Positions 29,382-61,916 of a stretch of 64,000 bases of DNA are shown here, piece by piece (within the stretch, counting starts at the first letter, position 1; every line of letters begins with the position of its first letter). Below the pieces are notes generated by a model. That model saw nothing but the letters and a program-made list of their open reading frames with translations, made no database searches and had not been told where the DNA came from. Position numbers and translations under genes: made by a program. The DNA lies in the NCBI GenBank assembly GCA_016222825.1, contig JACRQF010000015.1:297646-361645 (forward strand), in the 5' to 3' direction. This stretch comes from Verrucomicrobiota bacterium. Lineage in GTDB: Bacteria; Verrucomicrobiota; Verrucomicrobiia; CAIQCK01.

Positions 29382-29897
29382 TTACTTCCCTTGCAACCGC
29401 CTCAGATACTCGTCGAGGAGTTGTTGCTGCGCGGCGGGGTCCAGACTTGCGACAAGCCAGATGTAGATAATGCTCAGCACACCCAGCAACAGCCCGGCGA
29501 AACCGAGGATGATGCCGCAGATTGCCAGCGCCCGGCCACGCTCGCGGCGCTGGCGGATTTGCGAGAGTGAGACAAAGCCACAAATGACGCATGGGATGGC
29601 AAAGGGAAAACAGCACAGGCCCAATTGCGCCAGCACGAAGCTCCAGATCGCCTGCGCGTTCACCGGCGGCCCAACCACTGGCGGCGCGCCCGCTTGAAAC
29701 CACGCCGCGAAAGCCGCGTCCAACTCGCGTCGCTCTCCCGCCGCGCGCCACTGGCTGTCCGACGACGACCAGACCATCGTCGCCTTCGTCAGGCGCGCCT
29801 CGCGGGTCCATCGCTCCAACGTGGCGATGTCCACGGGGCCGTATTCCCGCTCGTCGCCGCCGCAGACGCGGTAGGAAATAGAGAAAGGTTCGGTCAT
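29382..29897 (-). CDS. DUF4339 (GYF-like) domain membrane protein, tandem paralog 3
   Basis: ORF 29382..29921; ATG at 29897 gives MTEPFSISYRVCGGDEREYGPVDIATLERW… then two or three TM helices. Start overlaps upstream gene stop (ATGA). Confidence 0.7.
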   Translation of the reverse strand: MTEPFSISYRVCGGDEREYGPVDIATLERWTREARLTKATMVWSSSDSQWRAAGERRELDAAFAAWFQAGAPPVVGPPVNAQAIWSFVLAQLGLCCFPFAIPCVICGFVSLSQIRQRRERGRALAICGIILGFAGLLLGVLSIIYIWLVASLDPAAQQQLLDEYLRRLQGK

Positions 29898-30385
29898 GTG
29901 CCGAGGCCCTCCACGCGGCACCTGAACACGGTCCAGAACAATCCGAGAAGCAGGCTAAGCACGAGGGAGAAGATGCCGATGGCGATGCCGGCGATGGCCA
30001 GCCCGCGTCCGCCTTCACCGCGCGTGTTGATCTGCGACAGCGAGATGGCGCCGAGGATAATCGCCGGGACGGAGAGGCAACCGCAGCAGTTCAACCCGAA
30101 GACCGCCAGCGACAGGCTCCAGACCGCGAGTGTGTTTGTGCGCGGCACTGCGAAGGAGAGCGGCGGGATGACGGCGGGCGGCAACGGGGCGATTCCGAGG
30201 GCTTGGGCCAGTTCAGGGATTTGCACGGCGGGCTGCCAGTTGCCGGTGCGCGAGTCCCACACCTTTGTCGGGGCGGCGACGCGGCGCTGGCGGATCCACT
30301 CTTGAAGCGTGGCGAGGTCCACCGGGCCGTATTCCTGACCGTCGCCGCCGATGATGCGGAAGGTAACTGGTGTCGCGTCTGTCAT
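29894..30385 (-). CDS. DUF4339 (GYF-like) domain membrane protein, tandem paralog 2
   Basis: 163-aa ORF: MTDATPVTFRIIGGDGQEYGPVDLATLQEWIRQRRVAAPTKVWDSRTGNWQPAVQIPEL then hydrophobic C-terminus. Confidence 0.7.
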   Translation of the reverse strand: MTDATPVTFRIIGGDGQEYGPVDLATLQEWIRQRRVAAPTKVWDSRTGNWQPAVQIPELAQALGIAPLPPAVIPPLSFAVPRTNTLAVWSLSLAVFGLNCCGCLSVPAIILGAISLSQINTRGEGGRGLAIAGIAIGIFSLVLSLLLGLFWTVFRCRVEGLGT

Positions 30386-30415
30386 GGTTTCTGGGATGGC
30401 TCGGCGCCAAGCACG

Positions 30416-31393
30416 TCAGGTTTGCTGACCGAAAATGTTCTCGTAAGCGACCATGAACATGCAGAAGCACATGGGCAGAGTGAAAACGATCCCGACAATG
30501 CAGGCAAGCAAGCCGAGCATGGTCAGCAGTCCCACCACGAGACCGTATGCGAAAATGGCAAACCAATGCCTGGCCACAACGCGACGGCTGGTTTCCATCG
30601 CCGCCCAGAACTGCATCCGCCGGTCCGCGACCAACGGCAACGCGAACGAATAGCAGACGCCGAGATACAGCACTGGCACCATGATCAGGCCCACGCCCAG
30701 CACCACCAACGAAACGCCCAACATATTGCGCGAGTCGGCCAGGAGCGCGCCGATGCCCACGACAACTCCACCAGGCAGAGCCGCGGCGAGGATCAGCACC
30801 GTCATGATGAGGTTCACCAGGATGGCTTGGGCGAAGAACAGATTGAAGCCATCGAAGATGTTGCCGAAACTCACGGTTTGTCCGCGCCGTCGCTGCAACA
30901 GCACATACCACACGCCGCCGATGAGCACCGGCTGGACAACGAGGTTGAAGGCCAGTTGCACCACGGCGCCAAAACAGGGAATCATCCCGATGGCGCTGAC
31001 ACCGAAGGACATGCCGAAAACGATCCAGCACGCGCCGAGCGCGAAACCCATATTGGCCTTGAAGAAGTTCCATCCCTGATTGAGCCAGTCGCCGAAGGCG
31101 ACCGTGTAATCGCGTTGCAGAATCTGACCCGCCAATTCTGCGCCCGGCGCGGGGCCGGTGGGAGCGACGCCGGGCGCGGCGGCTGGCGCGGGCGGCGGCG
31201 CGCTGAAGGCAGCGGCCAGTTCCGCAATCTGCGCGGCGGGCTGCCATTGGCCGGTGCGCGAATCCCACACCTGCGTCTGGCCGGCGACGCGGCCCTCGCG
31301 CGCCCATTGTTGGATGGTGGCGAGGTCAATGGGGCCGTATTCCTTGCCGTCGCCGCCGACGATCTTGAACGTGGGTGATGCTGGTGTGCTCAT
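30416..31393 (-). CDS. DUF4339 (GYF-like) domain fused to polytopic membrane domain, tandem paralog 1
   Basis: ORF 30416..31501; ATG at 31393 gives MSTPASPTFKIVGGDGKEYGPIDLATIQQWAREGRVAGQTQVWDSRTGQWQPAAQIAEL, Pro/Ala-rich linker, then ~6 TM helices. Confidence 0.7.
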   Translation of the reverse strand: MSTPASPTFKIVGGDGKEYGPIDLATIQQWAREGRVAGQTQVWDSRTGQWQPAAQIAELAAAFSAPPPAPAAAPGVAPTGPAPGAELAGQILQRDYTVAFGDWLNQGWNFFKANMGFALGACWIVFGMSFGVSAIGMIPCFGAVVQLAFNLVVQPVLIGGVWYVLLQRRRGQTVSFGNIFDGFNLFFAQAILVNLIMTVLILAAALPGGVVVGIGALLADSRNMLGVSLVVLGVGLIMVPVLYLGVCYSFALPLVADRRMQFWAAMETSRRVVARHWFAIFAYGLVVGLLTMLGLLACIVGIVFTLPMCFCMFMVAYENIFGQQT

Positions 31394-31522
31394 GTGGGAC
31401 TCCTTGGTTGATTGATGGCCGACTATCTCCGTCTGGACGCAACCATTACCAGAAAGCCGCCGCCGCGTCGAGGGGCGAAAAACCGCTTGCGTTCGCGGCA
31501 AGCGCGGCTAGACTGCTGCGCA

Positions 31523-31576
31523 AATGAACAAGATGACGCAGCATTGGTGGTGGCATAGATCGGGCCTCAAGCCCTG
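31523..31576 (+). CDS. candidate attenuator leader peptide (17 aa, MNKMTQHWWWHRSGLKP)
   Basis: Short ORF read directly from sequence (ATG AAC AAG ATG ACG CAG CAT TGG TGG TGG CAT AGA TCG GGC CTC AAG CCC TGA); three consecutive Trp codons flanked by His codons, immediately upstream of hisF-hisI-trpE-trpG. Confidence 0.55.
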
Positions 31577-31609
31577 ATCGCGCTATCCCTGCGCTGCGCT
31601 TGAGGACCC
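31562..31609 (+). promoter_or_regulatory. candidate antiterminator stem (GGGCCUCAAGC pairs with GCUUGAGGaCCC)
   Basis: 11-bp pairing with one bulge between 31562-31572 and 31598-31609; its 3' arm shares CCC (31607-31609) with the terminator 5' arm, so the two structures are mutually exclusive. Confidence 0.45.
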
Positions 31610-31642
31610 GGTGATTTGAGAAAGTCATCGGGTTTTTTATTT
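31607..31642 (+). terminator. intrinsic terminator-like hairpin plus U-tract (CCCGGUGAU…8-nt loop…GUCAUCGGG then UUUUUUAUUU)
   Basis: 9-bp stem (two G-U pairs) followed directly by T6AT3; ends 10 nt before the hisF ATG at 31652. Confidence 0.55.
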
Positions 31643-31651
31643 CAACGAATC

Positions 31652-32419
31652 ATGTTAGCCAAACGCATCATACCGTGCCTGGATGTCACCGGCGGTCGCG
31701 TGGTGAAGGGAACCAAGTTCCTGAACCTGCGCGACGCGGGCGACCCTGTGGAGTGCGCCCGCGAATACGACCGCCAGGGCGCCGACGAACTGGTGTTTCT
31801 CGACATCACCGCCAGCAGCGACGGGCGGCCGACGATGGTTGACGTGGTGCAGCGCACGGCCAGCGAGTGTTTCATGCCGCTCACGGTTGGCGGTGGCATC
31901 CGCACCGTCGAGGACATCCGCGCGATGCTCAAGGCCGGCGCGGACAAGACCTCGCTGAACACGGCGGCGGTGCAGAACCCCGACGTCGTGCGCGCGGGCG
32001 CGGAGCGGTTCGGCAGCCAATGCATCGTGGTGGCGGTGGACGCGCGGCGCGTGTCCGGCTCGTCGCCGCAACGATGGGAGGTCTATACGCACGGCGGGCG
32101 CAAGCCGACGGGCATTGACGCCATCGAGTGGGTGCGGCGCGTCGAGTCGCTCGGCGCGGGCGAGATTCTGCTGACCTCGATGGACGCCGACGGCACGAAG
32201 GCCGGCTACGACATTGAGTTGAACCGCGCGGTGAGCGAGGCGGTGCGCATCCCGGTGATCGCCAGCGGCGGCGCGGGCACGCTGGAGCACATGGCAGACG
32301 TGTTGCAGCGCGGCAAGGCCGATGCCGTGTTGGCGGCTTCCATTTTTCACTTTGGCGAGTATCAGGTGGCGGACGTGAAACGGTTTTTGCAGAGCAAAGG
32401 AATTTGTGTGCGACTCTGA
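31652..32419 (+). CDS. hisF: imidazole glycerol phosphate synthase, cyclase subunit HisF
   Basis: ORF 31616..32419; canonical HisF N-terminus begins at ATG 31652 ([23 protein letters not shown]…), full-length TIM barrel. Confidence 0.95.
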
Positions 32420-32431
32420 AAGGAAAACAAA

Positions 32432-32827
32432 ATGGCTGAACCGACATTCGACAAACTGAAGTTCGACTCCAACGGACTGATCCCGGCTGTCATCCAGGAG
32501 AGCGGCACGGGCCGCGTCTTGATGGTGGCCTACATGAACGCGGCGTCGCTGGCGAAAACGCTGGAAACCGGCAAGACGTGGTTCTGGAGCCGCTCGCGGC
32601 AAAAATACTGGCTCAAGGGCGAGTCCAGCGGCCATGTCCAGACCGTCAAGCGCGTGACGACGGATTGCGACTGCGACACGGTGCTCATCGAGGTCGAACA
32701 GGTCGGTGCGGCGTGCCACGAGGGTTTCAAGAGTTGCTTCTACCGCGAACTGCGCGCCGACGGCAACCTGAGTGAGCCGATCGAGCAGCGGTTGTTCGAC
32801 CCGGCGAAGGTGTATGGAAAGAAATGA
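32432..32827 (+). CDS. hisI: phosphoribosyl-AMP cyclohydrolase HisI
   Basis: 131-aa ORF with HisI motifs (…[26 protein letters not shown]…[20 protein letters not shown]…DCDCDTVL…). Confidence 0.9.
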
Positions 32828-32830
32828 GTC

Positions 32831-33391
32831 ATGAGCGAACTCTACGCACCGCCATTCGGACTGGCCTACTGGGCCGGCGTGGCGTTGCTGTTGTTCGCGC
32901 GCGGGCTGGATTTCCTCAGCACGTGGATCGCGACGCCGAGTTTGTTGCTGGAGGCGAACCCGATCGCGCGGCGGCTGGGCTGGCAAGGCGGAATTGCGGT
33001 GAACCTGCTCGTCTGCCTGGTGGCGGCGATGATTCCGTTTGTGGCTGTGCTGATCAGCGTGACGAGCGTGCTGGTGGCGGCGCGGAATTTCCAGGCGGCG
33101 TGGGTGTCGCGGACGATGGGCGAGTATGAGTTCCGCGAGCATCTGGAGGAGCAGTTTGGCCGCGCCGACAAGCGGCTGGTGCTCGGCTGTGTCTGGGCGC
33201 AAGGACTGCTCTACAGCGCGGTCGGCGTGGCGGTGGTGGCGCTGACGAACGACCTGATGGCGCAGGCGGTCGGCGGCGGCATCGTGGGTTTTGGCGTGGC
33301 GATAGCGGTCCATTCAATACATTATTACCGAAGAGCAAGACATGTATTATCCGACAAAGAGCGAGTTTCGCAGTTTAGCGAGCCGCGGTAA
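32831..33391 (+). CDS. hypothetical integral membrane protein (about 4 TM helices)
   Basis: ORF starts 4 nt after the hisI stop and overlaps trpE by 50 nt; strongly hydrophobic; no recognised family. Could be a frame artefact. Confidence 0.4.
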   Translation: MSELYAPPFGLAYWAGVALLLFARGLDFLSTWIATPSLLLEANPIARRLGWQGGIAVNLLVCLVAAMIPFVAVLISVTSVLVAARNFQAAWVSRTMGEYEFREHLEEQFGRADKRLVLGCVWAQGLLYSAVGVAVVALTNDLMAQAVGGGIVGFGVAIAVHSIHYYRRARHVLSDKERVSQFSEPR

Positions 33392-34826
33392 CCTCATTCC
33401 GGTTTACTGCGAGCTGCTGGCCGACCTGGAGACGCCGGTGTCGGCCTACCAGAAACTTCGCGGCAAAGGCCCGGCGTTCCTGTTCGAGTCCGTCGAGGGC
33501 GGCGAGCACATCGGCCGCTATTCGTTCATCGGCGCGGACCCCGGCATCACGCTCGTGCAGGACGGCGGCACCGTCCTCGTGCGCGAGGGCCGCAAGAGCA
33601 CGCGCGTCAAGTTCAAGCGCGACCCGTTGGAGGTCGTGGAGAAGGTGATGGCGCGCTACCGGCCGGTGGCGCTGCCGGAACTGCCAAGGTTCAGCGGCGG
33701 CGCGGTCGGATTCCTCGGCTATGAGTTCATCCACCACGTCGAGCCGGTCGTGCCGCGTCCGAAACAGGACGATCTTGGCGTGCCGCCGATGTATCTGATG
33801 CTGACGGACACCATCGTCATTTTCGATCGCGTCCGCCAGACCATCAAGGTCGTTTCCAACGCTCACGTCAGCGGCAACGCCGCCGCCGCCTACGACAAAG
33901 CCTGCCGCCGCATCGCCGCCATCATCGAACGGTTGCGGCGACCGCTGCCCGCCCGGCACGTCGAGTTCCAGCGCGAGGCGACGCCGCTGACGATGGAGAG
34001 CAACATGCCGGTCGAGCGTTACCAGACGATGGTGCGCAAGGCGAAGGAATACATCAAATCCGGCGACATCATCCAGGTCGTGCTCAGTCAGCGGTTCTCC
34101 GCGAAGGTGCGCTCCAAGCCGCTCGACGTTTACCGCGCGCTTCGCAGCGTCAATCCCTCCCCCTACATGTTCATCCTCGAACTCGGCGATTTCTCGCTCG
34201 TCGGCGCGTCGCCGGAGGTCCACGTGCGTTGCGAGGACGGCAACGTGGAGATTCGCCCCATCGCCGGCACGCGCAAACGCGGCAAGACGCCCGCCGAGGA
34301 CCTCGCGCTCGAAAAAGACCTGCTCGCTGACGAGAAGGAGCGTGCTGAGCACCTGATGCTCGTGGACCTCGCCCGCAACGATATTGGCCGCGTGTGCGAC
34401 TTCGGCAGCGTGAAGGTCGAGGAATTCATGGTCATCGAGCGTTACAGCCACGTGATGCACATCGTCAGCCAGGTCGAAGGCAAGCTCCAGAAGGAGCGCA
34501 CCGTCTATGACCTGATGCGCGCGACGTTCCCGGCAGGCACGGTCAGCGGCGCGCCGAAGATTCGCGCAATGCAGATCATCTCGCAACAGGAGGCGACGCA
34601 GCGCGGCCCCTACGCCGGCGCGGTCGGCTACTTCAGCTTCAACGGCAACCTCGACTGCTGCATCACTCTGCGCACCGCGTTGCTCAAGGGCGGCCGCGCA
34701 TACGTGCAGGCAGGCGGCGGCATCGTTGACGACAGCACGCCGGAAAACGAGTTTCAGGAAACGGTGAACAAGTCCATGGCATTGAGAAAGGCCATTGCGG
34801 TGGCGGAAGGTTTTGGAAAGACGTGA
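33342..34826 (+). CDS. trpE: anthranilate synthase component I TrpE
   Basis: 494-aa ORF; chorismate-binding enzyme signature and TrpE N-terminal region (MYYPTKSEFRSLASRGNLIPVYCELLADLETPVSAYQKL). Confidence 0.95.
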   Translation: MYYPTKSEFRSLASRGNLIPVYCELLADLETPVSAYQKLRGKGPAFLFESVEGGEHIGRYSFIGADPGITLVQDGGTVLVREGRKSTRVKFKRDPLEVVEKVMARYRPVALPELPRFSGGAVGFLGYEFIHHVEPVVPRPKQDDLGVPPMYLMLTDTIVIFDRVRQTIKVVSNAHVSGNAAAAYDKACRRIAAIIERLRRPLPARHVEFQREATPLTMESNMPVERYQTMVRKAKEYIKSGDIIQVVLSQRFSAKVRSKPLDVYRALRSVNPSPYMFILELGDFSLVGASPEVHVRCEDGNVEIRPIAGTRKRGKTPAEDLALEKDLLADEKERAEHLMLVDLARNDIGRVCDFGSVKVEEFMVIERYSHVMHIVSQVEGKLQKERTVYDLMRATFPAGTVSGAPKIRAMQIISQQEATQRGPYAGAVGYFSFNGNLDCCITLRTALLKGGRAYVQAGGGIVDDSTPENEFQETVNKSMALRKAIAVAEGFGKT

Positions 34827-34915
34827 TTCGTAACTCGTGATCCGTGATTCGAGCCGCGTCACCAATCACGAATCACGGATCACGAGTTACGAGTCACGCA
34901 TTACGGATTACGAAC
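34827..34915. repeat. array of 7-nt repeats (TYACGRR and its complement) forming a 24-bp perfect inverted repeat
   Basis: Read directly: arms at about 34828-34851 and 34868-34891, ~16-nt spacer; about seven consecutive 7-mers (aatcacg/aatcacg/gatcacg/agttacg/agtcacg/cattacg/gattacg) run to 1 nt before the trpG ATG. Confidence 0.75.
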
Positions 34916-35482
34916 ATGCTCCTAGTCATAGACAACTACGACAGCTTCACCTACAACCTCGTCCAATACCTGGGCGAGATGGGCGTGGAGATGAAGATCG
35001 TCCGCAACAACGAGGTCACTCTCGACGATGTGCGGGCGTTGAAACCGGCGCGAATCCTCATATCGCCCGGCCCGTGTTCGCCGGCACAGGCGGGCATTTC
35101 GGTGGAGGTCATCCGCCAGCTTGGACCGAAGATTCCGCTCTTCGGCGTCTGCCTTGGCCACCAGAGCATCGGCTACGCGTTCGGCGGCGAGGTCATCCGC
35201 AACTACCGGATGATGCACGGCAAGACCTCGCCGATCCACCACGACGGCCGGTTCCTCTTCCAAGGTCTGGCGAATCCTTTCGAGGCGACACGTTACCATT
35301 CGCTCGTCGTCAAGCGCGAGACGCTGCCGGATTGCCTGGAGATCACCGCCGAGACGCGCCCTGAAGGCGAGATCATGGGCCTGCGCCACAAACAATTCCC
35401 GATCTGGGGCGTGCAGTTCCACCCGGAGAGTGTGCTGACCACCGAAGGCAAGAAACTGCTGAAAAACTTCCTGACACTCTGA
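34916..35482 (+). CDS. trpG: anthranilate synthase component II (glutamine amidotransferase) TrpG
   Basis: ORF 34844..35482; canonical start at ATG 34916 ([19 protein letters not shown]…), class-I GATase catalytic Cys (GVCLGHQ) and His (QFHPES). Confidence 0.9.
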
Positions 35483-35575
35483 GGCCGCAGGCCGGGAACA
35501 TGGTGTCGGCGGGTTCCAGCGACGAGCGGGGGACGGTCTTGCAGTTTCGGTTGAGAAGCTGATTGTTCAACCGTT

Positions 35576-35601
35576 GTCCGAAGAATTTGTCCGAAGAATT
35601 T
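35576..35601. repeat. perfect 13-bp tandem duplication (GTCCGAAGAATTT x2)
   Basis: Read directly in the trpG to oxidoreductase intergenic region. Confidence 0.6.
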
Positions 35602-55970: not shown

Positions 55971-57320
55971 CTATTTGCCGGCAGGCGTTATCGGCTTTTT
56001 CGAGACGATGTCGTCGGCAGGAATGTCCACGAAGATGCCGGGCGCGGTCTCGAAATGAACGGTGCCGTCGTTCTCGACGCGGTTGATCAGGCCGCGCAGG
56101 GTGCGACCATCCTTGACTACTATAATGGTGTCGGGAAGGAAGAGGCGCTTGAGTTGGACGTTGCTGATCGTCGTGGTCTGGCCGTCCTGGATGCTGGCCA
56201 CGACCTGGACGTCGGCGCAGCCGGGCCTGACAAACTTCACGATGCGCTGGCCTTGCGGCACGTTGGAGATGATCAGCGGGACCGAGTAGGCTTGGTTGGG
56301 CGGCGCCTGGGTGACGCCACGCGGGTCGTTGTCCACAAACACCTGCACGCCGGCCGGGATCGTCGTCACTTGAAGGATGCCGAAAAGTTTCGCGAACGGT
56401 ATCTTCAGGTCCAAGTCCGCCCCTTTCTTCAGTGTGACCTTTCTCTCGACGGGGTCGAAGCCGTGCTTGGTGATCTTGATGGCGTATTCGCCTTCGTGGA
56501 GCCGGTCGAGGATGACCGGGGCCTTGCCACGCGCTTCGCTGTTAAGAAACACCTCGCCGCCGGTCGGATCGGTGTCCACCTTGATGCGACCGAGTTTCTC
56601 CTTGAGCAGGGCGTCGACGTTAAATTCCTTCATGCTTTTGACTTCGGCTTCCTGCTCGAACGGTTCATAGCCATCGAGTTCGACGCGGACCTGGTGTTTG
56701 CCGGCAAGGACGTTTTGGATGCTTTGCGGCGAATCACCCACGTAGGAACCGTCAAGGTAAACCTTGGCCTTCTCAGGCGTGGAAATGACCTTGATGGCGG
56801 TGAGCAGCGAGCGCAGTTCGAGCGAAATCAGCTTCGGCTGGCGGTCGCCTTCGTTCTGGATGTTCAGCACCGTTTCCTTGGACTCGTAGCCGTCCTTCTT
56901 GATGACGATGCGATGCTGGCCGGCGGGCAGGTCGGTCAACAGCACCGGCGTCTTGCCGCGGAACACATTGTTCACGAGCACTTCGGATTCCGCGGGGAAC
57001 GATTCGGCGAGGACCAGGCCGAACAACGGCCGCAGCGACAGGTCGAACCGCGTGGTTCCTTCCGGCAGCACGTTGACGGTGGCGCGCGTCTCCAGGAAAC
57101 CGTCGCGCGTGGCCACAACCAGATGTTGTCCCGGCGCAACCTTTAGCTTGATGGGCGAGTCGCCCTGGTAAACACCATCCAGTTCGATGCGCGCGCCGGA
57201 TGGCGACGTGCGCAGTTCGAGCAGGCTGCCGGGTTGTTCAACACAGCCGGCGGCCAGCAGTGCTGCCAGTATCAAGGCACTCAGTCCGCAACGTGCGATG
57301 GCAATCGTAGGGTTCATCGG
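55971..57320 (-). CDS. PEGA-domain lipoprotein (several PEGA repeats)
   Basis: ORF 55971..57437; ATG at 57320 gives lipoprotein-type signal MNPTIAIARCGLSALILAALLAAGC; repeated PEGA-like modules (…GKTPVLLTDLPAGQHRIVIKKDGYE…, …GKAPVILDRLHEGEYAIKITKHGFD…). Confidence 0.8.
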   Translation of the reverse strand, partial: PMNPTIAIARCGLSALILAALLAAGCVEQPGSLLELRTSPSGARIELDGVYQGDSPIKLKVAPGQHLVVATRDGFLETRATVNVLPEGTTRFDLSLRPLFGLVLAESFPAESEVLVNNVFRGKTPVLLTDLPAGQHRIVIKKDGYESKETVLNIQNEGDRQPKLISLELRSLLTAIKVISTPEKAKVYLDGSYVGDSPQSIQNVLAGKHQVRVELDGYEPFEQEAEVKSMKEFNVDALLKEKLGRIKVDTDPTGGEVFLNSEARGKAPVILDRLHEGEYAIKITKHGFDPVERKVTLKKGADLDLKIPFAKLFGILQVTTIPAGVQVFVDNDPRGVTQAPPNQAYSVPLIISNVPQGQRIVKFVRPGCADVQVVASIQDGQTTTISNVQLKRLFLPDTIIVVKDGRTLRGLINRVENDGTVHFETAPGIFVDIPADDIVSKKPITPAGK

Positions 57321-58744
57321 CGTGGCAGATGTCGTTGCACACCAATCAGTTTCCGGTCGGCCTCCTTGTAACGCTCGTCCTCGCGGTCGGGAACGCGCGC
57401 CAGGATCTCCGACAGGCATGTCTGCGCCTTGGCCCACTCGCCGAGCTTCATGGCTTGCTCGGCGTTGAAGCGCAAGCTGTTGATCTTTTCCTTGAGCATG
57501 TCCTTCGCCAGCGTCTCGTTCTGGACCGCCGCGGCGAAGTTGGCCGGTTTCGGCTCGATGATCTCCAGGTCAATCTGGACAAGCTGGAATGCCTTGATGG
57601 CGTTGTAGAGGTTGGGATAGTCCACGTCGCGCTGCTCGAAGAGCTGCTTGCCGCGCAGGTAGGCCTCGTCCGCTTCCCTGATCAACTCCTCGCGGGAGCG
57701 GTTGATCGCGGCGATGCCCAGTTCGTTCTGGGCGAAATCCTCCAGCACTTTCTGCGCGTTGACGAATGCGTCGGGGGCGATGGTGTTTTCGATCTCGACC
57801 CGCTTCACGCGCGCGCCGCGGGTCAGTTCGATGACCGCCATTTCCTGCTTGTCAGCAGGGAAGCCGCCGTATTTGGGTTTCTCCAACTTGTCGAAGCCGC
57901 CGTTCTCGATCTGACGGACCAGTTCTATGATGAGGCCCTCGCCCACCTTCTTCTCGCGCTGGACGTGGCGGCGCTGTTTGAGGTCATCCACGTTCAACGT
58001 CACTTTGTCGCCGCTGAGGCGTAGCGCGAACCGGAAGATGTTCTGCGTGCTCGCCTCGACCTTCTCGTAAAACAGGTCTGGCCGCCGCGTCTCGCCGCCC
58101 ATGCTCGACACCACTTGTGGCATGGAGCGCTGGACTTCCTTCCAAACGTAGAGTCCGCCGCCGATGGCCACGATTGTCAGGAGGGCCGTCAGCCCCAACG
58201 ACATCAGGCGGCGGCCGATGGGAGCGGCGGGCTTCTTCTTCGCGGGGCGTTTGGGCTTGCCGCCGAAGGTCAGTTCGGCCGGAGCCTCTTCGCCGGTTTC
58301 CCCGGCTTCTTCAACCTCTTCCTCCTTCCTTCGGGGCTGCTCCTCTTCCGCCGTCTCCTCCTCGGCTTCTTCCACGGCGGGCTTTGTGACCACGGGAAGC
58401 TTCTCGGTCGCCGGGCCGCGCTTGGGCGGCTCGCTCTCGCGGACGGGGCGCGCGGCTTCCTCAATGACCTCGAAGAGGGTGCTGCCGATGGAAATCTCGT
58501 CGCCGGGCTTCAGGACGCTCTCGTCAATGGACTGGCCGTTGACCTCGGTGCCGTTGACCGATTCGAGGTCGCGGATGACCATCTGGCCGTGCTCATCCAT
58601 GCGCACGTCGGCGTGTTCGGAGGAAACGAGCTGGTCGTCGGGAATGACGATGTCGCACTGCGCCGCGCGGCCGATGGTCACGGGGTTTTTGCCAACCGAG
58701 TATTCCCGGCCGCGGCGTCTGCCTTGTAGGATGCGAAGTTTCAT
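57314..58744 (-). CDS. FHA-domain membrane protein
   Basis: 476-aa ORF; N-terminal FHA domain (…YSVGKNPVTIGRAAQCDIVIPDDQLVSSEHADVRMDEHGQMVIRDLESVNGTEVNG…), Glu-rich linker, one TM helix, C-terminal domain. Confidence 0.85.
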   Translation of the reverse strand: MKLRILQGRRRGREYSVGKNPVTIGRAAQCDIVIPDDQLVSSEHADVRMDEHGQMVIRDLESVNGTEVNGQSIDESVLKPGDEISIGSTLFEVIEEAARPVRESEPPKRGPATEKLPVVTKPAVEEAEEETAEEEQPRRKEEEVEEAGETGEEAPAELTFGGKPKRPAKKKPAAPIGRRLMSLGLTALLTIVAIGGGLYVWKEVQRSMPQVVSSMGGETRRPDLFYEKVEASTQNIFRFALRLSGDKVTLNVDDLKQRRHVQREKKVGEGLIIELVRQIENGGFDKLEKPKYGGFPADKQEMAVIELTRGARVKRVEIENTIAPDAFVNAQKVLEDFAQNELGIAAINRSREELIREADEAYLRGKQLFEQRDVDYPNLYNAIKAFQLVQIDLEIIEPKPANFAAAVQNETLAKDMLKEKINSLRFNAEQAMKLGEWAKAQTCLSEILARVPDREDERYKEADRKLIGVQRHLPRR

Positions 58745-58763
58745 CCGCTTTGTGGTCTTCTCA

Positions 58764-59114
58764 CTACGCTACAACAAATTCAAGCTGGTCGCCCGGCTGC
58801 GAGTGGCTGCGGGCAATGGCGCCCACGGGCAACTCCAGCACACCCGCCGCGCCCAACGCGCCGCAGAACAGCCTCCAAGGAGCGAGCGCCGGCACCATTT
58901 TCACTATCGTCAGTCGCTTGTCAAAGAATATCACGTCAAGCGGCATCCGCATGAAACACATGTGGATGGCGTTGGCCGGCCGCAGCATCATGCCGTCGAA
59001 CCCCTCGAACCGCTGGAACATCAGCCCCAGCGTGCGGCTCCAGAGGGTCACGGCGGGCCGGGCGTTCCCGGCCAGCGTCGTGCCGCGGGTTGTGTTGCGG
59101 ATGATCATCGGCAA
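58764..59114 (-). CDS. DUF192-family protein
   Basis: 116-aa ORF; …RTLGLMFQRFEGFDGMMLRPANAIHMCFMRMPLDVIFFDKRLTIV… matches DUF192/COG1430 pattern. Confidence 0.7.
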   Translation of the reverse strand: MPMIIRNTTRGTTLAGNARPAVTLWSRTLGLMFQRFEGFDGMMLRPANAIHMCFMRMPLDVIFFDKRLTIVKMVPALAPWRLFCGALGAAGVLELPVGAIARSHSQPGDQLEFVVA

Positions 59115-59128
59115 CGAGTCGAGGCGGC

Positions 59129-60070
59129 TCAGAACGCGCTCCGGAACGCCTGCGCGAGGATCGGGCCGAGCAGGAACAGCATCACCGCCGGGAAAATCAG
59201 CAGCAGCAGCGGGCCGAGCATTTTCACCGGCGCCTCATAAGCGAGCTTCTCGGCGCGCTGGAACCGCTTCACGCGCATCTGGTCGGCCATGATGCGGAGG
59301 ATGGTGCCGAGGCTGACGCCGAGTTCGTCGGCCTGGACGAGCGCGGAGACGACGGAACTGAGGTCGGGCTGGTCCGCCCGCAAGCCCATGTCCCGCAGCG
59401 CCTGTCGGCGCGTCTTGCCGACCTGGATTTCATGGAACACGCGCAGCAGTTCCTCGCCGAGCGGGTCCATCGCGCGCTTCTCGATGATCTTGCGGATGGC
59501 GGTCATGAAATCGAGGCCGGCCTCCACTGAGAGCGTCATCAGGTCGAGCACGTAGGGCAGCGCCTTCTGCATGCTGCGGTGCCGGGCGTTGCGGGTCTGT
59601 TTCAGCCAACTCGTCGGGTAGATCAGGCTGTAGCCGATCATCAGGATCATCCCCACATTCCAAAAGCGGCCAACACCGGGCAGATCCTCCAATGCCGGCT
59701 TCATGCCGAAGCTGAGCGGCACGGCCACGATGAACAGCAGGACCTGGATGGACATGAACTCCTCCGCGCTCAGCAGCCCTTCATAGCCCGCGGAAATCAG
59801 CCGCCCGTCGAGCTTGGCGCGGTAGTTGTCCAGTTTCTTGTGCCGGAACAACGGCGCGACGTTGGGCACAAACGGCAGCAACAGCCGGAACAGCAGCGGC
59901 AGTTTTCTCATCTGCTGCCGGCCGTCGGCCAACCGCACGTATTTCACCTCACTCGCCGACATCCCGACATACCACGCCGCGGCAAACGCAAAGACCATCC
60001 ACATCAACGGCGCGATGATCTCCTGCGGCGTGATCTGCGTGACATACGGCACGATTCGCTCTGGTTCCAT
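59129..60070 (-). CDS. tadC: type II secretion system F-family protein, TadC-like (Flp pilus assembly)
   Basis: 313-aa ORF with GspF/TadC-type domain (…ALPYVLDLMTLSVEAGLDFMTAIRKI…) and flanking TM helices. Confidence 0.85.
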   Translation of the reverse strand: MEPERIVPYVTQITPQEIIAPLMWMVFAFAAAWYVGMSASEVKYVRLADGRQQMRKLPLLFRLLLPFVPNVAPLFRHKKLDNYRAKLDGRLISAGYEGLLSAEEFMSIQVLLFIVAVPLSFGMKPALEDLPGVGRFWNVGMILMIGYSLIYPTSWLKQTRNARHRSMQKALPYVLDLMTLSVEAGLDFMTAIRKIIEKRAMDPLGEELLRVFHEIQVGKTRRQALRDMGLRADQPDLSSVVSALVQADELGVSLGTILRIMADQMRVKRFQRAEKLAYEAPVKMLGPLLLLIFPAVMLFLLGPILAQAFRSAF

Positions 60071-60169
60071 TGCTTGTTGTCCTGCTCGTTAAAAAGTTGT
60101 GTCTCTGCGTTGTTGCGCTCCCGGATGCCGCTGGCTTAAACTGTGCCGGCAAAGAAACCGGAGCGCGTC

Positions 60170-60997
60170 ATGAAATTGTTACTGCTCATCATCTGCTTCG
60201 CTGCAAGCGTTATTCAGGCCGCCGACAAGCCTGTGCGCATCAAGTTCAAGGACAAGTCTGAACTGGAGGGCATCGTCAGCACCAGCATCAGCGATACCCA
60301 AGGGTTCACGCTCAAAACCAAGTTTGGCGAAACTCATTACAACTGGAACCAGATTGACATCAACGACCTGCGCCAATCCAACCCGGAACTCTACCAGTTC
60401 TACGTCCAACAAAGTCATGGCCGCTCGGTCAATGCCAGCCTGCTCAAAATCAAGCTCCGCGACGGCACTGTGCTCGAAGGTTCCGTTACCACGTCGCAGA
60501 CCGACACGCGAGGCTTCACGTTTCGATCCCAGTTTGGCAGCCGCTATTACGAATGGACTCAGATTGACCTCGAACATCTGAAACAGTCCAAGCCGGAGCT
60601 TTACCAGTTCTATCTCCAGCAGTCCCAGATTGACGACATCAAGACCGACGAACAGATCATCCAGTTCGTGAAGGGCAAGTTCGTCTTTCGCTCCGAGGCC
60701 AATGTCATCCTCAAGAACTACGGCCGCGTCCTCGACCAGGTGACCGCCGCGATGCGCATCAGACAGGTGTCCCAGCGCAACCAGCAGCTCGCCACCATTG
60801 TCAGCAACAGCCGGCCCGTGCTGCAAGCCGTCATCCAAAAATGCCAGGTGTTCTACGGCGCCACGCGCAGCCGCCCGCTCCAGTCGTTGCTGCTCAGCTA
60901 TCGCAACGCCTACGACGCCCTGGTCCGCACCGACTACGCGAGCTTCGCCTACAACCACAAGTTCGTCCAGGAGGCGCTCGCCGGGATGCAGCAGTAG
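60170..60997 (+). CDS. secreted hypothetical protein with internal tandem ~45-aa repeat
   Basis: ORF 60143..60997; ATG at 60170 with GGAG 8 nt upstream; signal peptide MKLLLLIICFAASVIQA; two repeat modules (DTQGFTLKTKFGETHYNWNQIDINDLRQSNPELYQFYVQQS and DTRGFTFRSQFGSRYYEWTQIDLEHLKQSKPELYQFYLQQS); GC appears lower than neighbours. Confidence 0.65.
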   Translation: MKLLLLIICFAASVIQAADKPVRIKFKDKSELEGIVSTSISDTQGFTLKTKFGETHYNWNQIDINDLRQSNPELYQFYVQQSHGRSVNASLLKIKLRDGTVLEGSVTTSQTDTRGFTFRSQFGSRYYEWTQIDLEHLKQSKPELYQFYLQQSQIDDIKTDEQIIQFVKGKFVFRSEANVILKNYGRVLDQVTAAMRIRQVSQRNQQLATIVSNSRPVLQAVIQKCQVFYGATRSRPLQSLLLSYRNAYDALVRTDYASFAYNHKFVQEALAGMQQ

Positions 60998-61019
60998 CCG
61001 GCCGCGGCAGCTTTCTTTT

Positions 61020-61916
61020 TCAAATATCAATGTTCACGATTTTGCGGATGATCAGGTAGCCGCAGATCTCAAAGCCGAGCGCCAGCACGATGATCATCAC
61101 ACCCACCGTGGAGAAAATGAAGCCCGTCATCATCGCCGGGCTGATGAAATACATCGCCGTCGCCAGCAGCAGCGGCATGAACCCGACGATGATCGCCTGA
61201 AGCCGCCCCTGCGCCGTCAGCGAGCGGATCTTGCCCTCCACCCGCATCCGTTCGCGGATGACCGTGGCGAGCTGATCGAACACTTCTGTCAGGTTGCCGC
61301 CGGTCTGGCGCGAAATCTCGATGGCGGTGATCATCAGGTCGAGGTCCTGGCTGCCGACGCGCTTGCTGAGGCTGTCCATCGCCTCCTCGAATTTCACGCC
61401 CAGCCGGTGCTGGTGCAGGAACAGCCCGAACTCCTCGCTGATCGGCCGGCGGTTTTCTTTCACCACCATGTCGAAGGCCTGCAACACGCTGAAGCCGGCG
61501 CGCAGCGAGTTGCTCATCGTCTGCATCGCCTCCACCAGTTGCTCGTTGAACAGCTCCAGCCGCTTTTGCCGCATCCGCCGGATCACCCAGCGCGGAATCA
61601 TGAAACCGATGGCGCCAAAGATCAGCGAGAACGCCGCCGTGCCGGCGAGGTGCAGCGTGTCCTCGAAGCTGCCCACCAGCGCGAACATGATCAGCGCGAA
61701 CGACACTCCCGTGATCTGCGCCAGCATCACCACCTGCTGCGGGTTGAGCGACAGGAACATGTCGTCCAGATGCCGGCCGGTCTCCTCGATATAGACCTCG
61801 CGATACGTCCGGGACATTTCCGCCATCCACTCGCCGAGCGCCCAGACGATGCCGGCCGCCGACAGGAAATAGAGCAGCGGCACCAAGTAACTGACGCTGA
61901 GGTCGTAAAAGGTCAT
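61020..61916 (-). CDS. tadB: type II secretion system F-family protein, TadB-like (Flp pilus assembly)
   Basis: 298-aa ORF, GspF-type domain with TM helices (…SNSLRAGFSVLQAFDMVVKE…). Confidence 0.85.
   Translation of the reverse strand: MTFYDLSVSYLVPLLYFLSAAGIVWALGEWMAEMSRTYREVYIEETGRHLDDMFLSLNPQQVVMLAQITGVSFALIMFALVGSFEDTLHLAGTAAFSLIFGAIGFMIPRWVIRRMRQKRLELFNEQLVEAMQTMSNSLRAGFSVLQAFDMVVKENRRPISEEFGLFLHQHRLGVKFEEAMDSLSKRVGSQDLDLMITAIEISRQTGGNLTEVFDQLATVIRERMRVEGKIRSLTAQGRLQAIIVGFMPLLLATAMYFISPAMMTGFIFSTVGVMIIVLALGFEICGYLIIRKIVNIDI

Follow-up and report, generated by a model that had tools for sequence, protein, structure and literature searches.

A lineage-typical hisF-hisI-X-trpE-trpG cluster in Verrucomicrobiota, probably switched by an upstream Trp/His-codon leader

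Five genes, hisF, hisI, a membrane-protein gene that we call X, trpE and trpG, follow one another in a 64,000-nucleotide stretch of DNA from a Verrucomicrobiota bacterium (the window). We propose that this cluster is a lineage-typical operon and that, in the close clade of the source genome, it is expressed as one hisF-hisI-X-trpE-trpG mRNA under ribosome-mediated attenuation, a reading to which we assign a probability of about 0.68. An upstream leader with Trp and His codons probably switches transcription, and a contribution of its His codons to sensing is possible.

The five ORFs lie head-to-tail on the + strand, contiguous and at the places given by the first-pass annotation (Table 1). Profile matches identified hisF as the cyclase subunit of imidazole glycerol phosphate synthase, trpE as anthranilate synthase component I, and trpG, the final gene of the five-gene unit, as a TrpG/PabA-type glutamine amidotransferase. 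The hisI product is a monofunctional phosphoribosyl-AMP cyclohydrolase consisting of the PRA-CH domain alone, in which Pfam and NCBIfam profiles detected no HisE domain. Values of dN/dS were 0.05-0.09 for hisF and 0.04-0.14 for hisI. That the window holds no other his or trp genes was upheld by a Pfam scan of 40 additional predicted proteins (leaving a few gaps and ORFs without a match), among which none was a further his or trp gene and hisH, hisA, hisE and hisG were not found. The cluster is neither a canonical his operon (hisGDCBHAFI/E), having just hisF and monofunctional hisI, nor a canonical trp operon (trpEGDCFBA), having just trpE and trpG.

Table 1. Features of the cluster and of the region upstream of it, in window coordinates
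Feature	Position	Strand	Remarks
Putative sigma-70-type promoter	31487..31514	+	Hexamers conserved in relatives; -35 TTGCGT 31487-31492, 16-nt variable spacer, -10 TAGACT 31509-31514
Leader peptide ORF	31524..31577 (ATG..TGA)	+	17 codons + stop, MNKMTQHWWWHRSGLKP; His-Trp-Trp-Trp-His at 31542-31556
Small hairpin	31559..31578	+	ATCGGGC / GCCCTGAT; contains leader stop codon
Proposed antiterminator	31559..31612	+	31559/31561-31572 pairs with 31598-31610/31612
Intrinsic terminator	31606..31638	+	12-bp stem, GAGA loop (31606-31633), T6 tract (31633-31638)
hisF	31652..32419	+	TIGR00735 391.6 bits (cutoff 294.6); PF00977
hisI	32432..32827	+	NF000768 174 bits (cutoff 126); PF01502
X	32831..33391	+	Hydrophobic ORF, 186 aa, between hisI and trpE
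trpE	33342..34826	+	TIGR00564 590.6 bits (cutoff 517.7)
Inserted repeat element	34823..34914	+	trpE–trpG spacer; at this site, specific to source genome
trpG	34916..35482	+	TIGR00566 256 bits (cutoff 121); PF00117

The description of the junctions as short or overlapping was right for hisF/hisI (12 nt), hisI/X (3 nt) and X/trpE (a 50-nt overlap), and had to be revised for trpE–trpG. The true start of trpG is almost certainly the ATG at 34916 and not the GTG at 34844, because residue 1 of the profiles and all relatives align at the former and not at the latter; the TIGR00566/PF00117 trpG profile begins at residue 25 of the longer ORF. The trpE–trpG spacer therefore measures 89 nt, not 17 nt. 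It is occupied by a 29-bp perfect hairpin made of heptamer repeats (34823-34897; free energy -56.6 kcal/mol, z = -8.8) and by a TCACGAA-like tandem array at 34859-34914, scored by TRF as 8 copies of a 7-nt unit. The repeat element occurs as a single copy in the window, and the corresponding spacer of relatives is 6 nt long or holds other heptamer hairpins. In the source genome, the 29-bp hairpin could uncouple the expression of trpG.

The first-pass annotation had called this architecture unusual; it proved to be the norm in a large verrucomicrobial group. The gene order recurs across many independent genomes with unrelated flanking genes, and the five-gene unit itself was found intact in differing genomic contexts, with variable genes downstream of trpG. 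In 105 of 109 loci, a hisI gene precedes X at a distance of no more than 200 nt; the commonest hisI-to-X junctions are -1 and -4 nt, i.e., overlaps of 1 or 4 nt, and hisF lies upstream in about half of the X loci. On the other side, trpE is found within 300 nt downstream of X in 74/106 loci, and X is the last gene, with trpE elsewhere, in 29/106. The trpE start falls within X in all 14 close-clade loci, and in most of the remaining loci it lies at most 50 nt away. A trpG gene after trpE is seen solely in the close clade of the window, most relatives having trpE without trpG. This recurrence is far beyond chance, and the cluster is typical of a large verrucomicrobial lineage and not a quirk of the source genome. 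The counts point to hisI–X(–trpE), and not the five-gene set, as the conserved core.

The membrane ORF X, whose conservation and selection the first-pass annotation had proposed to check, proved to be a genuine gene that evolves under purifying selection. We recovered 556 homologues, in at least 317 species-level genomes that are nearly all labelled Verrucomicrobiota, with dN/dS of 0.16-0.47. The alignment has 29 invariant columns, the window protein carries all of the invariant residues, and the family shares the signature R-x2-D-F-x-S-T-W-x-A-T-P ... L-E-x-N-P ... A-A-R-N-F-Q-x-x-W-x-x-R-x-x-G-E. About 5 TM helices are predicted in a family length of about 175-190 aa, the AF2 model is helical and confident (pLDDT 88), and the conserved polar residues group on the predicted cytoplasmic face. 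In length, TM helices, motif and context, the window protein fits a family of hisI-coupled verrucomicrobial membrane proteins. X matched no Pfam or NCBIfam family, and no solved PDB structure of similar fold was found. Known trp-associated membrane proteins (the actinobacterial Trp-operon family and TrpP-type transporters) were considered as an identity for X; X and 34 homologues matched none of these families in Pfam (E up to 10), nor did X in NCBIfam (E up to 0.01). For this inner-membrane protein, our best guess is a role in small-molecule transport or membrane tethering tied to HisI. Distant members of the superfamily are encoded away from his and trp genes, and X may therefore play a general membrane role and simply have been carried along. 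The 50-nt overlap with trpE, present as first described, has no special meaning: in three relatives (L007, L014 and L094), premature stop codons cut X short and the TrpE frame is intact, so the tail of X within the overlap is dispensable. The N-terminus of TrpE is conserved from residue 1 in distant relatives.

The evidence for regulation lies upstream of hisF. A promoter-like block was recognized there by its conservation: across 11 relatives the two hexamers are fixed or almost fixed, the spacer between them is variable, and the block persists even at loci with a different gene upstream. A consensus promoter scan did not flag it. Transcription from this putative promoter would start 0-3 nt before the leader ATG, which would make the leader ORF near-leaderless; since no Shine-Dalgarno sequence was found before the leader ORF, its translation would depend on such a leaderless start. 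A counterpart of the leader ORF occurs at every close-clade locus, and it is conserved in 11/11 distinct sequences of the clade. Its Trp-Trp-His is invariant, and changes elsewhere are synonymous or conservative, the variants of the run among relatives being HWWWH, HWRWH, HHWWH and YQWWH. The first-pass annotation had described a dual-codon leader: the ORF is real and its Trp-Trp-His is fixed, but the upstream His codon has given way to Tyr/Gln in three relatives (L009, L016 and L018).

Downstream of the leader codons, two mutually exclusive structures are predicted. Pairing within the terminator is kept in 98.5% of cells across 11 relatives, with an invariant U-tract, and its T6 tract ends 14 nt before the hisF ATG in the same orientation. 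A single pair of its stem is changed on both sides, a compensatory UA-to-CG exchange in 4 sequences; covariation support is thin because the leaders differ little from one another (84% mean column identity). The small hairpin has standard pairs in 98.7% of cells (11 sequences), and its 5' half doubles as the 5' strand of the proposed antiterminator, which would sequester CCCG(GU), the 5' arm of the terminator. By manual reading, L009-type and L017 sequences keep the antiterminator helix with other base pairs, and its register shifts between relatives, which precludes scoring by column. Until the 3' arm of the terminator has been made, this helix is the fold of lowest energy for the nascent RNA. 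With a ribosome stalled at the Trp codons, it is also the minimum-energy fold in 5/11 sequences (L007, L009, L016, L017 and L018), and in the window and five other sequences the equilibrium fold retains the full terminator. In the window sequence, the equilibrium difference is 3.9 kcal/mol in favour of the full terminator over the extended antiterminator, and antitermination there must therefore be kinetic. Both with a ribosome at the stop codon and with no ribosome, the full terminator is predicted. Taken from sequence and predicted folds, the leader, the terminator and the alternative pairing appear to form the anatomy of a classic ribosome-mediated attenuator. A hairpin, T-run and TGGTGG upstream of hisF occur in 10/11 close-clade loci vs 0/44 distant loci, and about 90% of X-bearing loci are without such an attenuator.

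In the operon that we propose, the five genes would be transcribed into a single mRNA from the conserved putative promoter that lies some 165 nt before hisF. When charged tRNA-Trp is plentiful, the ribosome would reach the leader stop codon and cover the 5' strand of the antiterminator, so that the terminator hairpin and U-tract form before hisF and transcription ends. When tRNA-Trp is scarce, the ribosome would stall on the Trp codons and leave 31559-31572 free for 31598-31612; this pairing would catch the 5' arm of the terminator before the 3' arm is transcribed, giving readthrough into hisF. The upstream His codon could act likewise when His is scarce. Beyond the clade, hisI and a translationally coupled X form a module kept in hundreds of species, with trpE directly after it in most.

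Whether the leader senses histidine as fully as tryptophan is a separate matter. It is conceivable, though we consider it doubtful, that His-Trp-Trp-Trp-His is a true dual sensor in which shortage of either charged tRNA stalls the ribosome within one short stretch and opens the operon, so that the leader would match the mixed his/trp content in the manner of the Leu/Val/Ile and Thr/Ile leaders of ilv/thr operons. Each leader variant brings together one or more His and two or more Trp codons in a single contiguous run, and a row of five Trp/His codons would hardly arise by chance, with Trp at 1.7% and His at 2.3% of codon usage in the genes of the window. The leader His codon is CAT, the minor one (115 CAT vs 290 CAC in the window), and in the predicted geometry a stall at the first His codon would free the whole antiterminator strand; without His sensing, moreover, surplus Trp would be expected to repress hisF and hisI. 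Against this stands the replacement of that first codon by Tyr-Gln in the three relatives named above. The only invariant His follows the Trp codons, and for a ribosome stalled at that codon the prediction in 11/11 sequences is that part of the antiterminator is covered and the full terminator can form; such a stall would mask the antiterminator and not free it, which leaves the dual-codon description only partly supported. The invariant His codon (CAU) also lies within a stretch that pairs in the leader, and this pairing may be what keeps it conserved. One or two His codons would in addition be a weak sensor compared with known His attenuators, which use long His runs (7 in E. coli hisL).

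It is unlikely that the genes are mere neighbours, with hisF-hisI-X attenuated, trpE(-trpG) expressed mainly from a promoter inside X or hisI, and the order kept by descent. Detached trpE-trpG pairs are common in nature (PMC2395257), and this would agree with such an arrangement. So would the very stable hairpin that parts trpG from trpE in the window, and the loci in which X is the last gene suggest that hisI-X can function without trpE. The starts of trpE inside X or close behind it, however, leave no non-coding room for a promoter, in line with the first-pass description of contiguous junctions, which are too short for ordinary intergenic promoters. A Trp-codon leader before hisF would make sense only with trpE/G on the same transcript, and the leader is confined to the clade whose unit includes trpE-trpG. 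Terminators between the his and trp genes, which had been named as a finding that would speak against co-transcription, show no excess: 7 terminator-like sites were seen within the cluster vs 7.0 expected, with no excess of promoter-like sites either. That the upstream element is no attenuator and encodes a small conserved protein or an sRNA, or just serves a different transcript as its terminator, its Trp/His codons being incidental, is very improbable: the lack of an Rfam match (Trp and His leaders included, even at E up to 10), the lack of a Shine-Dalgarno sequence and a peptide C-terminal half (GSGLKP) as conserved as the Trp codons would fit it, but the upstream gene is divergent (minus strand) and differs between relatives, so that nothing upstream needs a terminator, the hairpin and T6 tract stand just before hisF in its own orientation, the C-terminal codons coincide with the 1:2 hairpin and with the antiterminator strand, which explains their conservation, and tandem Trp codons beside mutually exclusive hairpins are the hallmark and defining signature of trp-type attenuators.

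Compared with known systems, the attenuation that we propose shares with the E. coli trpL/trp and hisL/his leaders and the multivalent thr/ilv leaders a short leader ORF in which codons for the regulated amino acid are clustered. As in classical attenuators, a Rho-independent terminator stands directly before the first structural gene, the predicted alternative helix uses bases that also belong to the 5' arm of the terminator, and the predicted default without a stalled ribosome is termination. Unlike in these systems, the histidine genes come first after a Trp-rich leader, His and Trp codons are mixed in one run, the leader ORF probably begins no more than 3 nt from the 5' end of the transcript and is without a Shine-Dalgarno sequence, and the advantage of the antiterminator appears kinetic, not thermodynamic. 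The verrucomicrobial leader also matches no curated leader family: no such Rfam family matched in the window at gathering thresholds, and the Rfam Trp and His leaders gave no match over 31400-31700 even at the relaxed threshold. A literature search found no described attenuator for Verrucomicrobiota.

With regard to gene order, M. tuberculosis has hisF-hisI ... trpE-membrane protein-trpC, in which the membrane protein belongs to the "Trp-operon-associated membrane protein" family. In Streptomyces coelicolor, his (SCO2048-2054) adjoins trp1 (SCO2036-2043) (PMC7947799, PMC2175336). The verrucomicrobial cluster resembles the actinobacterial neighbourhood in that only a few genes separate late his genes from trpE and the trp region includes the gene of a small membrane protein. 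It differs in that the genes directly abut or overlap, the membrane gene lies between hisI and trpE and not after trpE, X has no detectable similarity to any Pfam/NCBIfam family, and trpD, C, F, B and A are absent. Because the phylum differs, the his–trp linkage would be convergent or very old. Control of trp in Bacillus is exerted by the TRAP protein, not by a leader peptide. The aromatic supraoperon of Bacillus subtilis (aro genes–trpEDCFBA–hisHb/hisC–tyrA–aroE) is a characterised unit of transcription in which trp genes are joined by a histidine-named gene (PMC1173090). The linkage there has a direct biochemical reason, because its his gene encodes an aminotransferase shared with aromatic amino-acid synthesis, whereas HisF/HisI share no substrate with TrpE/G. 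In a survey of marine metagenomes, trpE-trpG pairs with non-trp flanks were the commonest two-gene arrangement (44 cases), and genes of unknown function were seen inserted in trp operons with unclear significance (PMC2395257). The present cluster likewise has a detached trpE–trpG pair and an uncharacterised inserted gene, but its flanks are specifically hisI and hisF, and X keeps its place across hundreds of species.

Neighbourhoods that mix his and trp genes, and detached trpE–trpG pairs, are thus already known (PMC7947799, PMC2175336, PMC1173090, PMC2395257), and the cluster is a familiar regulatory design in a new form, not a novel type of system. For histidine genes to be controlled by Trp sensing would be physiologically odd if the His codons had no part in it. 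Without an effect of the upstream His codon, tryptophan alone would shut off the histidine genes.

The five genes claimed by the first-pass annotation, hisF, hisI, a membrane ORF, trpE and trpG, were borne out as a row on the + strand at 31.5-35.5 kb, four of them identified by profile searches. The hydrophobic ORF, hereafter X, has no match in Pfam or NCBIfam, and the profile scan found no HisE part in the hisI product. The junctions measure 12 nt (hisF-hisI) and 3 nt (hisI-X), followed by a 50-nt X/trpE overlap. The start of trpG is almost certainly the ATG at 34916, because the profiles and all relatives begin there, which would make the trpE–trpG spacer 89 nt in this genome. Gene calling by codon-position GC was extended across the window, and a Pfam scan of 40 further proteins recovered no his or trp enzyme; the claimed absence of other his/trp genes in the window holds for the proteins scanned. 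Among the neighbours are sugar-metabolism oxidoreductases, isomerase-like proteins, a sulfatase and a heparinase-like protein, together with three GYF-domain membrane proteins and one secretion-ATPase cluster. The GYF-like proteins are tandem paralogues, divergent from the his–trp operon, in which an N-terminal domain (GYF_2/DUF4190 in the homologous locus L007 of a relative) precedes membrane segments; the trio recurs in L007, a pair in L009, and they are not in L006. Two further tandem paralogues adjoin trpG downstream with a 16-nt mutual overlap; each starts with a twin-arginine-like N-terminus and contains a GCGGRGSG nucleotide-binding-like motif, and the 475-aa protein gave no Pfam match at E up to 1e-8. 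The secretion/pilus-type cluster encodes a T2SSE ATPase with an N-terminal FHA domain, two T2SSF-like membrane proteins, a second FHA-domain protein and a PEGA-domain protein.

Coordinates of the his–trp cluster, its leader and associated features (window positions, unless a relative's locus, L plus number, is named)
Feature	Coordinates	Strand	Remarks
GYF-like paralogues (three)	29382-31501	-	
19-nt block	31478-31496		AAAAACCGCTTGCGTTCGC
-35-like hexamer	31487-92		TTGCGT, invariant in alignment
-10-like hexamer	31509-14		TAGACT, invariant in alignment
Leader ORF	31524-31577	+	17 codons, MNKMTQHWWWHRSGLKP
Leader peptides in relatives			MNKATQHWWWHGSGLKP, MNKTTQHWRWHGSGLKP, MNKMAQHWWWHGSGLKP, MNKTTQHWWWHGLGLKP, MKQTAQYQWWHGSGLKP, MNTTAQYQWWHGSGLKP, MKQAAQYQWWHGSGLKP, MTTTHHWWHGPGLWP
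Small hairpin	31559-78		includes leader stop codon
Terminator	31606-33		12-bp hairpin, GAGA loop, then T6; end 14 nt before hisF ATG
hisF	31652-32419	+	TIGR00735, 391.6 bits (curated cutoff 294.6)
hisI	32432-32827	+	NF000768, 174 bits (126); cyclohydrolase domain only
X	32831-33391	+	hydrophobic, 186 aa
trpE	33342-34826	+	TIGR00564, 590.6 bits (517.7)
Inserted repeat, trpE–trpG spacer	34823-34914		29-bp perfect hairpin (34823-34897) plus 8-copy tandem array
trpG (TrpG/PabA-type amidotransferase)	end at 35482	+	TIGR00566, 256 bits (121)
13-nt direct repeat	35574-35601		TTGTCCGAAGAAT, perfect, 2.2 copies
Paralogue, 475 aa	35664-37091		
Paralogue, 456 aa	37076-38446		
Secretion/pilus-type cluster	57314-63640	-	
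DMT_6 gene, 119 aa	L001 7253-7612		
Heptamer hairpin	L016 6995-7063		
Heptamer hairpin	L018 6995-7080		
Distant X subfamily member	L148 5001-5555		
Distant X subfamily member	L149 5001-5561		
Distant X subfamily member	L150 5001-5546		

X and MBI5687110.1, a protein of a Verrucomicrobia MAG, are identical. Searching 5.8 billion proteins returned 556 homologues; of the 120 matches listed, all that carry a name are verrucomicrobial. With a profile, 468 matches came up among 1.8 billion cluster representatives. Relatives are encoded in 317 genomes of a scan that held one genome per GTDB species, and the labels of the best 80 of these are nearly all Verrucomicrobiota, Limisphaerales or Pedosphaera. 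Alignment of 35 diverse members left 29 invariant columns, with the signature R24, D27-F28, S30-T31-W32, A34-T35-P36, L40-E41, N43, G50-W51, N86, W91, R94, G97-E98. Measured against nine close relatives, dN/dS was 0.16-0.47 for X and 0.03-0.22 for the enzymes, which indicates that purifying selection acts on X, more loosely than on the enzymes. A spurious ORF is ruled out by the hundreds of homologues, the invariant motifs and dN/dS <0.5, and the question of whether the membrane ORF is conserved and under purifying selection is settled in its favour. The AlphaFold2 model is confident (pLDDT 87.9) and all-helical, with five or so helices of membrane length plus an amphipathic one; from the positive-inside rule we infer that the N-terminus lies out and the C-terminus in, an orientation that would cluster the conserved polar residues at the cytoplasmic face. 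The idea that X replaces the missing HisE domain was set aside, X being strongly hydrophobic with ~5 predicted TM helices. A distant subfamily at ~33% identity keeps the motif R..D..ST...LE.N...W..R..GE; its genes are isolated in unrelated contexts, one in a MAG labelled Lentisphaeria, and a search for his/trp context around these members found none, so that the fold family extends beyond the hisI-linked subfamily.

Homologues of the five window proteins were placed by tblastn in every fetched locus, giving 136 distinct X loci. hisI lies <=200 nt upstream of X in 105 of the 109 loci with enough upstream sequence, most commonly with a 1-nt overlap (46 loci) or a 4-nt overlap (13), the signature of translational coupling. 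Of 106 loci, 74 have trpE within 300 nt downstream of X, and 29 (27%) have hisI–X without trpE, X there being the last gene with convergent genes beyond. MAGs labelled Limisphaera and Pedosphaera (L085, L032) are among the carriers of hisI–X–trpE. hisF stands directly upstream of hisI in 29 of 79 loci, upstream with an insertion in 20 and is absent from 30, where the upstream genes are unrelated to one another. The inserted gene frequently encodes a small DMT_6 (PF04342) membrane protein. Only in the window's own clade (X >=69% identical) does trpG come after trpE, and there the five-gene unit is embedded between differing flanking genes on both sides. The order is not unique to this genome, and judged by these counts the stable core is hisI–X, in most cases extended by trpE, and the arrangement of five genes is a clade-specific elaboration. 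The DMT_6 gene, absent from the window, separates hisF and hisI in ~13 distant relatives (L001, L021, L025, L031, L035, L051, L053, L060, L067, L076, L107 and L126 among them), which have two small membrane proteins among their his/trp enzymes. In the close-clade loci L017 and L095 the hisF–hisI gap is ~650-660 nt rather than 9-15 nt, which suggests an extra gene inserted in the attenuator-controlled operon.

All 14 close-clade loci share the 50-nt X/trpE overlap, but a special significance for it is ruled out: stop codons end the X frame sooner in L007, L014 and L094, whereas every locus keeps an intact TrpE N-terminus (MYYPTKSEFRSLA.RGNL), and TrpE is conserved from residue 1, distant relatives included. 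The overlap is simply the X frame running to a stop inside trpE; it does show that this junction leaves a promoter no intergenic room.

Direct reading of 31478-31660, aligned with 11 distinct relatives, resolved a compact element upstream of hisF. Two invariant hexamers flank a 16-nt spacer that varies, a pattern of conservation typical of promoters that makes this a putative one, and the leader ATG stands 8-9 nt past the -10 hexamer; a search for a Shine-Dalgarno sequence of the leader ORF found none. The 19-nt block around the -35 hexamer, almost invariant in the 11 relatives, reaches well past the 6 nt that a -35 hexamer needs; it could be a UP element or the operator of an additional regulator besides the attenuator. 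Trp-Trp-His is invariant across the leader peptides of the relatives, in a window whose genes use Trp and His for 1.7% and 2.3% of codons. The terminator and small hairpin have standard pairs in 98.6% of alignment cells, with one compensatory UA-to-CG change, in four sequences. The element precedes hisF in 10/11 close-clade loci, plus a WRW variant, and in 0/44 distant loci; no consistent short Trp/His-rich ORF or hairpin-plus-T-run was found upstream of hisF, hisI or trpE in distant relatives. The leader matches no Rfam family, at gathering thresholds or at E up to 10, and an Rfam scan of 13 distant loci gave no match.

The leader was folded with the ribosome-covered segment held single-stranded. 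With no ribosome, a long imperfect hairpin (31537-98) containing the Trp codons is predicted together with the terminator, which is also predicted with a ribosome at the leader stop codon. A ribosome stalled on the Trp codons frees the bases from ~31559, and in that state CGGGCCTCAAGC (31561-72) would pair with GCTTGAGG-A-CCCG (31598-610). In nascent RNA whose terminator 3' arm is not yet made, this helix is predicted to grow to 14 bp and to include the terminator 5' arm. The equilibrium fold of the Trp-stalled state is likewise the extended helix in L007, L009, L016, L017 and L018, where it cuts the terminator down to 8-9 weak pairs that no longer adjoin the U-tract. Five other sequences and the window keep the full terminator at equilibrium, by a margin of 3.9 kcal/mol in the window, so that antitermination there would have to rely on co-transcriptional kinetics. 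Because the register shifts between subgroups, the antiterminator pairings were read by hand from the alignment and not scored by column: CCTCAAGC:GCTTGAGG plus CGGG:CCCG in the window group, CGGGCCT:AGGCCCG plus AGCC:GGCT in the L009 group, and CGGG:CCCG, CCTC:GAGG and GGCC:GGCC in L017. By our own readings, the antiterminator helix appears to be preserved through different pairs in the subgroups. The leader has the anatomy of a trp-type attenuator, and from this we infer the mechanism.

The invariance of the tandem Trp codons makes tryptophan the safe choice for the amino acid that the leader would sense. The first-pass annotation had proposed a dual-codon leader, and of this the Trp codons stand, as does the presence of His codons in every leader variant. 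Bivalent sensing of Trp and His would, moreover, avoid excess Trp turning off two histidine enzymes, and the leader His codons are CAT, the minor one (115 CAT vs 290 CAC). However, three relatives have Tyr-Gln in place of the upstream His, and a ribosome stalled on the invariant downstream His would, by prediction, mask part of the antiterminator, with termination as the outcome in 11/11 sequences, which leaves a bivalent leader a possible but rather doubtful alternative to tryptophan sensing.

Co-transcription of the cluster is favoured, on genomic grounds, by the junction lengths, the overlap, movement as a block and the Trp-codon leader before hisF. Terminator-like matches inside the cluster are at shuffled expectation (7 found, 7.0 expected), which also counts for it; the occurrence of hisI–X without trpE in 27% of loci counts against. 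The inserted repeat in the trpE–trpG spacer, the sole copy in the window, is built of 7-nt repeats (TCACGAA-like) and is very stable (-56.6 kcal/mol, z = -8.8); lacking a U-tract it is not a typical terminator, and it could affect trpG, either in relative expression or in stability. At this junction relatives have a 6-nt spacer or different heptamer hairpins, as in L016 and L018. The heptamer element looks recurrent, mobile or slippage-generated, and may resemble the cyanobacterial STRR repeats. No convincing intrinsic terminator was found past trpG; the 181-nt spacer to the next gene holds a perfect 13-nt direct repeat.

That leader peptides attenuate trp and his operons is textbook knowledge, and the control logic proposed here is the same; the window leader fits no curated family. 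In mycobacteria, hisF-hisI lies near trpE, followed by a small membrane protein. Why a tryptophan-codon sensor should govern two mid-pathway histidine enzymes along with the first tryptophan enzyme is a physiological question that connects to older observations of a histidine–tryptophan 'metabolic interlock'. Mixed arrangements also exist in S. coelicolor, whose trp1 locus (SCO2036-2043; PMC7947799) and his cluster (SCO2048-2054; PMC2175336) are four genes apart. In B. subtilis an aromatic supraoperon encloses the trp operon, which adjoins hisHb (PMC1173090), and a marine metagenome survey found detached trpE–trpG pairs and unexplained inserts in trp operons to be common (PMC2395257). With hisI–X(–trpE) common across verrucomicrobial X loci, the architecture is not unusual for this lineage, and the first-pass interpretation as a whole is partly supported. 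Our literature search found no description of attenuation in Verrucomicrobia, nor of a hisF-hisI-X-trpE-trpG cluster. The control logic and the pathway mixing were already known; what is new is the unstudied phylum, the unannotated, position-locked X and the uncurated leader.

To our knowledge, almost no gene regulation has been studied experimentally in Verrucomicrobiota, to which these results would extend leader-peptide attenuation, with an example that is unusually clean and short (~115 nt). The most valuable leads are this compact, possibly leaderless Trp/His leader and the X family, which is widespread (at least 317 species) and without annotation, and whose position, glued to hisI and mostly followed by trpE, makes for an unusually specific functional hypothesis. 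If X is a passenger and the attenuator senses Trp alone, this is an ordinary lineage-specific operon. The fuller reading, to which we give a probability of about 0.2, is that a leaderless attenuator bivalent for Trp and His co-regulates steps of two PRPP-consuming pathways on a single transcript and that X, translationally coupled to hisI, is a functional partner of these enzymes; X could then tether them to the membrane, or act as a small transporter or exporter linking the His and Trp intermediate pools. If that is true, hisI–X–trpE would be an unrecognised cross-pathway module specific to Verrucomicrobiota.
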